DNA from: a virus
Lineage: Duplodnaviria > Heunggongvirae > Uroviricota > Caudoviricetes
IMG/VR virus record: IMGVR_UViG_2681813263_000002
Direction: 5' to 3' (one strand)
DNA: 15,529 bases
In this document: positions 5,830 through 7,130 of the stretch, piece after piece
Numbering within the stretch: position 1 is the stretch's first letter
Layout of the letters: each line of letters opens with the position of its first letter
The notes under the pieces: model-generated
Seen by the model: the letters and a program-made list of their open reading frames with translations, nothing else
The model's database searches: none
What the model was told of the DNA's origin: nothing
Program-made: the position numbers and the translations under genes

Positions 5830-5849
<20 letters not shown>

Positions 5850-7130
5850 TCTCCCGCATATTGCCAGCATGGCTTTTAATGAGCCGCTGATGCTTGAACC
5901 CGCCTATGCGCGGGTTTTCTTTTGTGCGCTTGCAGGCCAGCTTGGGATCAGCTGCCTGACGGATGCAGTATCCGGCGACAGCCTGACTGCCGGAGAGGCA
6001 CCCGCGGCGCTGGCGTTATCCGGTGATGATGACGGACCACGACAGGCCCGCAGTTATCAGGTAATGAACGGCATCGCCGTGCTGCCGGTGTCCGGCACGC
6101 TGGTCAGCCGTACTCGGGGATGACCGGTTACAACGGCATTATCGCCCGTCTGCAACAGGCTGCCAGCGACCCGATGGTGGACGGCATTCTGCTCGATATG
6201 GACACACCGGGCGGAATGGTGGCGGGAGCATTTGACTGCGCTGACATCATCGCCCGTGTGCGTGACATAAAGCCGGTATGGGCGCTGGCCAATGACATGA
6301 ACTGCAGCGCAGGTCAGCTGCTTGCCAGTGCCGCCTCCCGGCGTCTGGTCACGCAGACCGCCCGGACAGGCTCCATCGGCGTCATGATGGCTCACAGTAA
6401 TTACGGCGCTGCACTGGAGAAACAGGGCGTGGAAATCACGCTGATTTACAGCGGCAGCCATAAGGTGGATGGCAACCCCTACAGCCATCTACCGGATGAT
6501 GTCCGGGAAACATTGCAGTCCCGGATGGATGCAACCCGCCGGATGTTTGCACAGAAGGTGTCGGCATATACCGGCCTGTCCGTGCAGGCTGTGCTGGATA
6601 CCGAGGCTGCAGTGTACAGCGGTCAGGAGGCCATTGATGCCGGACTGGCTGATGAACTTGTTAACAGTACCGATGCGATCACCGTCATGCGTGATGCACT
6701 GGATGCACGTAAATCCCGTCTCTCAGGAGGGCGAATGACCAAAGAGACTCAATCAACAACTGTTTCAGCCACTGCTTCGCAGGCTGACGTTACTGGCGTG
6801 GTGCAAGCGACGGAGGGCGAGAACGCCAGCGCGGCGCAGCCGGACGTGAACGCGCAGATCACCGCAGCGGTTGCGGCAGAAAACAGTCGCATTATGGGGA
6901 TCCTCAACTGTGAGGAGGCTCACGGACGCGAAGAACAGGCACGCGTGCTGGCCGAAACCCCCGGTATGACCGTGGAAACGGCCCGCCGTATTCTGGCCGC
7001 AGCACCACAGAGTGCACAGACGCGCAGTGACACTGCGCTGGATCGTCTGATGCAGGGGGCACCGGCACCGCTGGCTGCAGGTAACCCGGCATCTGATGCC
7101 GTTAACGATTTGCTGAACACACCAGTGTAA
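5830..7130 (+). pseudogene. C: Gene C (capsid assembly protease / minor capsid protein, S49 SppA-like family) split by a frameshift near 6118-6123: 5' part 5830-6123 (97 aa), 3' part in another frame 6120-7130
   Basis: GTG at 5830 gives [31 protein letters not shown]..., ending ...LVSRTRG then TGA at 6121-6123. The next ORF starts at ATG 6120 (MTGYNGIIARLQQAASDPMVDGILLDMDTPGG...) in a different frame with no spacer or Shine-Dalgarno sequence. In lambda these form one continuous protein (...SRTRALQPYSGMTGYNG... by recollection, 439 aa); here 97 + 336 = 433 aa, consistent with loss of about 19 nt. Confidence 0.6.
6525..7130 (+). CDS. nu3: Scaffolding protein gpNu3, translated in frame from an internal start within the 3' part of C
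   Basis: Internal ATG at 6525 (MDATRRMFAQKVSAYTGLSV...) in the same frame and with the same stop as the C 3' region; 201 aa, matching lambda Nu3 length and position. Confidence 0.8.
   Translation: MDATRRMFAQKVSAYTGLSVQAVLDTEAAVYSGQEAIDAGLADELVNSTDAITVMRDALDARKSRLSGGRMTKETQSTTVSATASQADVTGVVQATEGENASAAQPDVNAQITAAVAAENSRIMGILNCEEAHGREEQARVLAETPGMTVETARRILAAAPQSAQTRSDTALDRLMQGAPAPLAAGNPASDAVNDLLNTPV

Follow-up and report, generated by a model that had tools for sequence, protein, structure and literature searches.

The closest described counterpart of the locus analysed here is gene C of bacteriophage lambda (NC_001416, 4418–5737), an S49-family prohead protease gene that lies between B and D, overlaps the end of B by 20 nt at its GTG start, carries the nested start of Nu3, and is read as one 439-aa CDS. 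According to the relevant passage of PMC3224144 (citing Medina et al. 2010), gpC, the prohead protease, comes together with B and Nu3 in the initiator complex, and the entry for C in table 1 of PMC10695390 (also citing Medina et al. 2010) scores the gene as essential in lambda. The protease domain has a solved relative in SppA of Bacillus subtilis (PDB 3RST and 4KWB; MEROPS S49), a cellular membrane protease whose whole protease domain, including the Ser nucleophile segment, matches gpC residues 81–298; gpC adds N- and C-terminal regions for prohead assembly.

Two other systems offer points of comparison. The lambda G-T programmed -1 frameshift places two overlapping frames in the late operon, which is also the outward appearance of the C gene described below. 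Decaying lambdoid prophages offer a different precedent: Qin, Rac and DLP12 of E. coli K-12 belong to this group, and IS elements and pseudogenes abound in Shigella genomes. Here we describe a lambda-like prophage of Shigella sonnei in which C is very probably a recent frameshift pseudogene, its gpC inactivated by a single 19-bp repeat-mediated deletion.

A lambda-type late operon with C in two frames

The window (the whole stretch of DNA analysed, 15,529 nt) is the entire contig CXDG01000094.1 of the Shigella sonnei draft assembly GCA_001252135.1. It holds a lambda-type late operon (Nu1, A, W, B, C/Nu3, D, E, FI, FII, Z, U, V, G, T, H, M and L) that is collinear with lambda 13–14136 at 97–98% identity, and every head and tail gene from Nu1 to L other than C is full length in the sister assemblies. 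C keeps the position that it has in lambda, between B and D, with Nu3 nested in frame; its GTG is preceded by GGAGGAG and overlaps the end of B exactly as in the phage (Table 1). The gene is about 97% identical to lambda C at the nucleotide level, and the protein, once repaired, differs from lambda gpC at 10 of 439 residues. Unlike lambda C, it lacks 19 nt after codon 92 and consists of ORFs of 97 and 336 aa in place of one of 439 aa; the C frame stops after 97 codons, where an uninterrupted frame of about 439 codons would span the S49 fold (residues 81–298).

The initial annotation had described this arrangement as a C frame of 97 codons from GTG 5830 to TGA 6121–6123, followed by a second frame whose ATG at 6120 overlaps the stop and has no ribosome-binding site. 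The first frame can be seen in the sequence and the ORF list, and the second as ORF 6120–7130. The total that it gave for the two pieces, 433 aa against 439 aa for lambda C, agrees with the fragment lengths and the lambda record, and its claim of an intact Nu3 holds as well: the frame 6525–7130 is open with its start as in lambda, the N-terminus reading MDATRRMF (MDATRQMF in lambda). The ATG of the 3' ORF overlaps the stop as ATGA and is the native internal codon Met104 of C. No usable Shine-Dalgarno sequence was found for it, the only G-rich upstream run being GGGG at a spacing of 0. The 97-aa product is called in all sister assemblies.

Table 1 Features of the C region and neighbouring genes (positions in the window)
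Feature	Position	Strand	Description
Portal gene B	3930..5849	+	Directly upstream of C, 20-nt overlap with C start; 533 aa, intact in sister assemblies
Gene C, 5' fragment	5830..6123	+	GTG start, 97 codons, TGA 6121-6123; gpC residues 1-96 plus Gly
Deletion junction, CTGGT joined to CAGCCGTACTCGGGG	6100..6119	+	Alignment to lambda, E. coli A38 and intact S. sonnei loci L013-L018
Last sense codons and premature stop, CGG GGA TGA	6115..6123	+	Seen in the sequence
Gene C, 3' fragment	6120..7130	+	-1 frame, 336 aa, equal to gpC 104-439; Peptidase_S49 domain, NCSAGQ, Nu3 region
Nu3, nested scaffold gene	6525..7130	+	201 aa, in frame with 3' C fragment, intact; lambda nu3 5132-5737
Head decoration gene D	7140..7472	+	110 aa, intact; clade-marking base C at 7441

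Other landmarks of the late operon are also present in the window. At the end of G (11502–11508) the window keeps GGGAAAG, the heptamer of the programmed -1 frameshift of lambda G-T. The cosN of the window (1096–1107) reads GGGCGGAAGGCG where lambda has GGGCGGCGACCT, with five changes within six bases. We considered this variant as a second sign of decay and rejected that idea, since two phage records (YDC107_1 and PhiR46_1) and 155 of the 5,426 complete E. coli genomes carry the variant too; because it recurs there and in intact-C S. sonnei, it looks like a natural alternative cos, not damage.

Portal gene B appears in the window as a 639-aa ORF, in which a gap of 262 Ns (4617–4878) is flanked on both sides by an identical 56 nt (window 4561–4934). 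The 318 extra nt were rejected as a real insertion or duplication: they consist of the Ns and a 56-nt contig overlap, and are absent from all sister assemblies. The 639-aa portal ORF is a scaffolding artefact of GCA_001252135.1 only, made of a contig overlap and an estimated gap. At the left end, window 1–161 is about 90% identical to a stretch beside ydfO in S. sonnei CP032523.1 (locus L020, 8223–8329), and was probably scaffolded on as a small contig of a paralogous prophage.

A 19-nt deletion between short direct repeats

We aligned the C region to lambda NC_001416 and to E. coli A38, the best E. coli match. Relative to both, 19 nt (CAGCCGGACGCGGGCGCTG) are gone between window 6104 and 6105, and no other indel was found in window 5800–6220. 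The intact sequence reads CTGGT-CAGCCGGACGCGGG-CGCTG-CAGCCGTACTCGGG-GATG, in which CAGCCG occurs twice at a spacing of 19 nt in lambda, A38 and intact S. sonnei. The deletion removed one perfect 6-nt copy together with the 13-nt spacer, and the single retained CAGCCG, the second copy, stands at window 6105–6110. These six bases are the first of an imperfect 14-nt direct repeat (CAGCCGgACgCGGG and CAGCCGtACtCGGG, 12/14 identical); by chance, six nucleotides would match at given ends with a probability of about 1/4096. A lost segment bounded by a short direct repeat of which one copy is kept is the footprint of slipped-strand loss, and we infer that the 19 nt were probably removed by replication slippage or by microhomology-mediated deletion between the two CAGCCG copies. 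DNA folding revealed no slippage-favouring hairpin at the repeat region beyond that of shuffled sequence (z about 0), so the repeats alone underlie the proposed mechanism. No promoter or terminator was created at the break (6100–6130).

Since 19 is not a multiple of three, the frame runs into a TGA six codons past the junction. In nucleotides, the loss comprises codons Ser93–Leu98 and the final base of Val92. The apparent gap at the protein level is ALQPYS, because the second repeat copy re-encodes SRTR; the two differences between the repeat copies are coincidentally synonymous in the shifted register, and the truncated upstream product therefore still ends in LVSRTRG before the stop. The initial annotation had estimated a loss of about 19 nt, and the alignment to lambda C that it called for gives exactly that number. 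Its reconstruction of the flanking repeat was right about the presence of a direct repeat (CAGCCG) and wrong about two copies of CCGTACTCGGG: this 11-mer occurs once, its upstream counterpart reading CCGGACGCGGG (9/11 identical). Where it gave the lost codons as roughly those for ALQPYSG, the apparent protein-level gap is ALQPYS. Its suggestion of a slipped-strand event is in keeping with the repeats, a deletion between direct repeats fitting slipped-strand or microhomology-mediated loss.

Distribution of the junction and origin of the deletion

The two-frame C is peculiar to a small group of genomes. Across the best matches listed from 93 phage and 3,369 E. coli records, the matching stretch measures 1720 nt (1708 in the exception, H60) versus 1701 in the window, and all of these listed matches carry a single 'S49 family peptidase' CDS. 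A two-ORF C as the lambda-family norm, which the initial annotation had named as an observation that would overturn its reading, is thus not what the relatives listed display. The junction was searched with a 40-nt query able to seed only on the deletion junction, chosen because BLAST with a 101-nt query bridged the 19 nt of intact genomes by joining two partial matches. Neither 5,426 complete E. coli genomes nor 50,697 phage records contained a match to the 40-nt query, and exact scans returned 0 matches in GTDB species representatives and 0 in JGI metagenomes. The one match in IMG/VR is the sister assembly GCA_001253895.1, of the same clone. A programmed frameshift would keep two frames and a slippery motif in relatives; these relatives are single-frame, and no X XXY YYZ heptamer is present at window 6112–6123. 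The break in C is therefore unlike that of lambda G-T, lacking a canonical heptamer, conserved in no relative, and arising from a derived deletion.

Within S. sonnei, the identical junction occurs in 10 other loci from at least eight assemblies or runs of different submitter series (GCA_900487965.1, GCA_001259615.1, GCA_001252175.1, GCA_001253895.1, GCA_001261215.1, GCA_013655695.1, and the Logan assemblies ERR5979253 and SRR19126783). All carriers seen are short-read assemblies, and the reproducibility of the junction was judged at the assembly level. Both products are on record as 'minor capsid protein C [Shigella sonnei]', the 336-aa product on 34 contigs and the 97-aa product on 26. A literature search found no paper naming the carrier assemblies or runs.

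The intact gene is the common state in S. sonnei. With the 19 nt restored, the 439-aa protein is residue-for-residue identical to 'MULTISPECIES: S49 family peptidase [Shigella]' / [Shigella sonnei], the common S. sonnei allele, which is found on at least 1,000 contigs including complete chromosomes. Intact and carrier loci were obtained via the H (tape-measure) and A proteins of the window. Intact-C loci (CP032523.1, CP041511.1 and drafts) encode the same repaired protein and differ from the window by 1–3 SNPs and one 19-nt gap over about 13.6 kb, the gap lying at 6104 in L013–L018. Unlike the window, they possess the 19 nt and have T at base 7441 (codon 101 of gpD). This base separates the two groups throughout: it is C (Ala, as in lambda and E. 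coli) in 10/10 carriers and T (Val) in 7/7 intact-C loci sampled from S. sonnei, a split that speaks for one origin. Carriers differ among themselves by 0–3 SNPs, except for a 3' block of GCA_001259615.1 beyond 13000.

C thus has the marks of a pseudogene: an intact orthologue in the closest relatives, a non-triplet indel with a premature stop, and recurrence in independent assemblies. Taken together, the exact intact allele, the 1–3 SNPs, the marker at 7441 and the similarity of the carriers indicate that the deletion is young, of single origin, derived, and confined to a minority clone. The mutation would have arisen once in this clone of S. sonnei and then been inherited, a history that fits neutral decay.

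Several loci show further variation. The GCA_001259615.1 locus (L005) is identical to the window up to about 13000, after which about 290 differences are found (3' end of H, M and L; window 13000–15525); this divergent block may reflect mosaicism of the tail region or, alternatively, a chimeric assembly that includes part of a second prophage. The intact-C strain CP032523.1 (L013), and this strain only, has two substitutions at positions equivalent to window 6143 and 6148, less than 45 nt downstream of the deletion site. In two other intact-C loci, L016 (GCA_000188795.2) and L018 (CP041511.1), the tail genes Z, M, L and K are split by small indels, which may represent either further decay or platform homopolymer errors.

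Consequences for gpC and the prophage

The deletion separates parts of the protease that belong to one fold. The 3' fragment retains Peptidase_S49 (PF01343) at 150.2 bits versus a gathering cut-off of 24.9, while a Pfam search of the 5' fragment gave no match. The Pfam domain corresponds to lambda residues 150–297 and falls entirely within the 3' fragment, as does the Ser nucleophile segment NCSAGQ. The structural match is longer: gpC 81–298 aligns to residues 4–226 of B. subtilis SppA 3RST (E = 4e-22), beginning at GIAVLPVSGT (gpC residues 81–90), the first strand of the fold, which lies in the 5' fragment. The break after residue 96 thus cuts the first strand off from the rest of the S49 fold, a domain that SppA has whole.

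Translation from GTG 5830 would shift frame after Arg96 and stop at TGA 6121–6123, giving a 97-aa peptide that comprises the N-terminal region and, of the protease fold, no more than the first beta-strand. Both the catalytic part and the scaffold-like C-terminal region would lie in the -1 frame, downstream of an ATG that lacks a ribosome-binding site. With a premature stop upstream and such an ATG downstream, normal decoding should yield no full-length gpC. Nu3, which has retained its start, should still be produced, and D, E and the tail genes would stay expressible. Given that lambda requires C, head maturation by this prophage copy alone is predicted to fail; from this analysis we infer that gpC protease activity, which in prohead maturation is directed at Nu3, B and gpC itself, would be lost and particle production defective. 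Two routes might soften this outcome. The ATGA overlap could, judging from the sequence, allow some termination-reinitiation that yields the 336-aa fragment, and gpC might be supplied in trans by another lambdoid prophage of the same genome.

Some carrier and relative assemblies provide glimpses of the wider prophage complement. A single N, at 15811 in L006 and at 15047 in L007, joins each locus to tail genes of a second set (L, or Z-U-V) that is 79–86% identical, which shows at least one additional lambdoid prophage in these S. sonnei genomes. In CP032523.1 (L020, 6938–8211) the late operon contains an IS3-family transposase (HTH_Tnp_1, rve, rve_3), inserted after the lysis cassette and before ydfO/Nu1, and draft contigs of the carriers begin at this IS (L004, 1–131). 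An IS in the late operon fits a prophage that was already on its way to decay.

Alternative explanations

We weighed whether the 19 nt might be present in the cells and have been lost by mis-assembly of a draft holding several similar prophages. The window gives some cause for this suspicion, being a scaffolded draft with three N-runs (162–787, 862–913 and 4617–4878), with the clear artefact in B (a 56-nt duplication around the 262-N gap) only 1.2 kb upstream and a left end (1–161) that looks like a piece of a paralogous prophage. However, the same junction recurs base for base in 10 other loci, including the independently assembled ERR5979253, SRR19126783 and GCA_013655695.1, and the carriers are free of the N-gap artefact of B. 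They also have in common the marker base at 7441, a separate site, which is the pattern of a clade and would not follow from random error, and Illumina chemistry does not produce a reproducible 19-nt deletion. Given the junction in all sister assemblies, an assembly artefact is very unlikely indeed, and the lesion that the initial annotation took to be real is found in independent assemblies and read sets alike.

If the deletion is real, C may still be leaky, or its loss may have been selected. On the former reading, a rare -1 slip at C GGG GAU GA would yield a 433-aa gpC lacking only the loop residues ALQPYS, or ATGA-coupled fragments would associate with each other. A slip of tRNA-Gly from GGA (6118–6120) to GGG (6117–6119) does rejoin the native frame exactly (in-silico product, 433 aa), and the four-G run beside a weak stop, UGA-C, in the A site is a 'shifty stop' situation. 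Precedents exist for frameshifting beside stop codons and for compensatory slippage on G runs, the latter documented at low level for herpesvirus thymidine kinase (PMC5009743), and the six missing residues fall in a loop aligned to a gap-containing stretch of SppA. Yet the slip site is not a canonical X XXY YYZ heptamer, and its flanks are native C coding sequence one SNP from the intact copies, so nothing has evolved there to stimulate shifting. The two-frame C occurs in no listed relative (more than 3,000 E. coli, 93 phage), the 3' ORF has no ribosome-binding site, and the split parts strand 1 from the remainder of the S49 fold. From these sequence features, we regard occasional production of a working gpC as improbable. 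The latter reading holds that loss of gpC was favoured, blocking infectious particles while the other prophage genes stay; the allele does persist in a clone sampled by several projects, and the remainder of the structural operon is intact. The lysis genes of the S. sonnei prophage are intact too, however, so loss of the head protease would not save an induced cell. The allele is found in a minority of S. sonnei contigs (34 versus at least 1,000 intact), its junction does not recur independently among 5,426 E. coli genomes and 50,697 phage records, and persistence with 0–3 SNPs is the expectation of neutral hitch-hiking in a young clone. Selection for the loss thus appears highly improbable, and a neutral, recent inactivation of C is the reading that we carry forward.

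Implications for lambdoid prophages of Shigella sonnei

Read as a recent inactivation, the split C is an ordinary pseudogene of a well-known gene and involves no new gene organisation or mechanism. The two-ORF C should be annotated as a pseudogene, and the finding carries little weight beyond such bookkeeping. As in decaying lambdoid prophages and Shigella pseudogenes, a single inactivating indel has struck an essential morphogenesis gene in a prophage that already holds an IS; unlike in decayed lambdoid prophages, the lesion is very young and, from Nu1 to L, the remaining head and tail genes are full length.

If the leaky reading were true and few gpC copies sufficed for each prohead, the prophage might stay weakly productive, an accidental 'compensatory frameshift' (cf. 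PMC5009743).

The deletion is a textbook-clean case of loss between short direct repeats. As an inactivation of an essential morphogenesis gene it is datable and of single origin, and the late operon around it is otherwise complete. As a clade marker it could help to recognise one Shigella sonnei sublineage, in which this prophage copy is predicted to make no mature heads without help.
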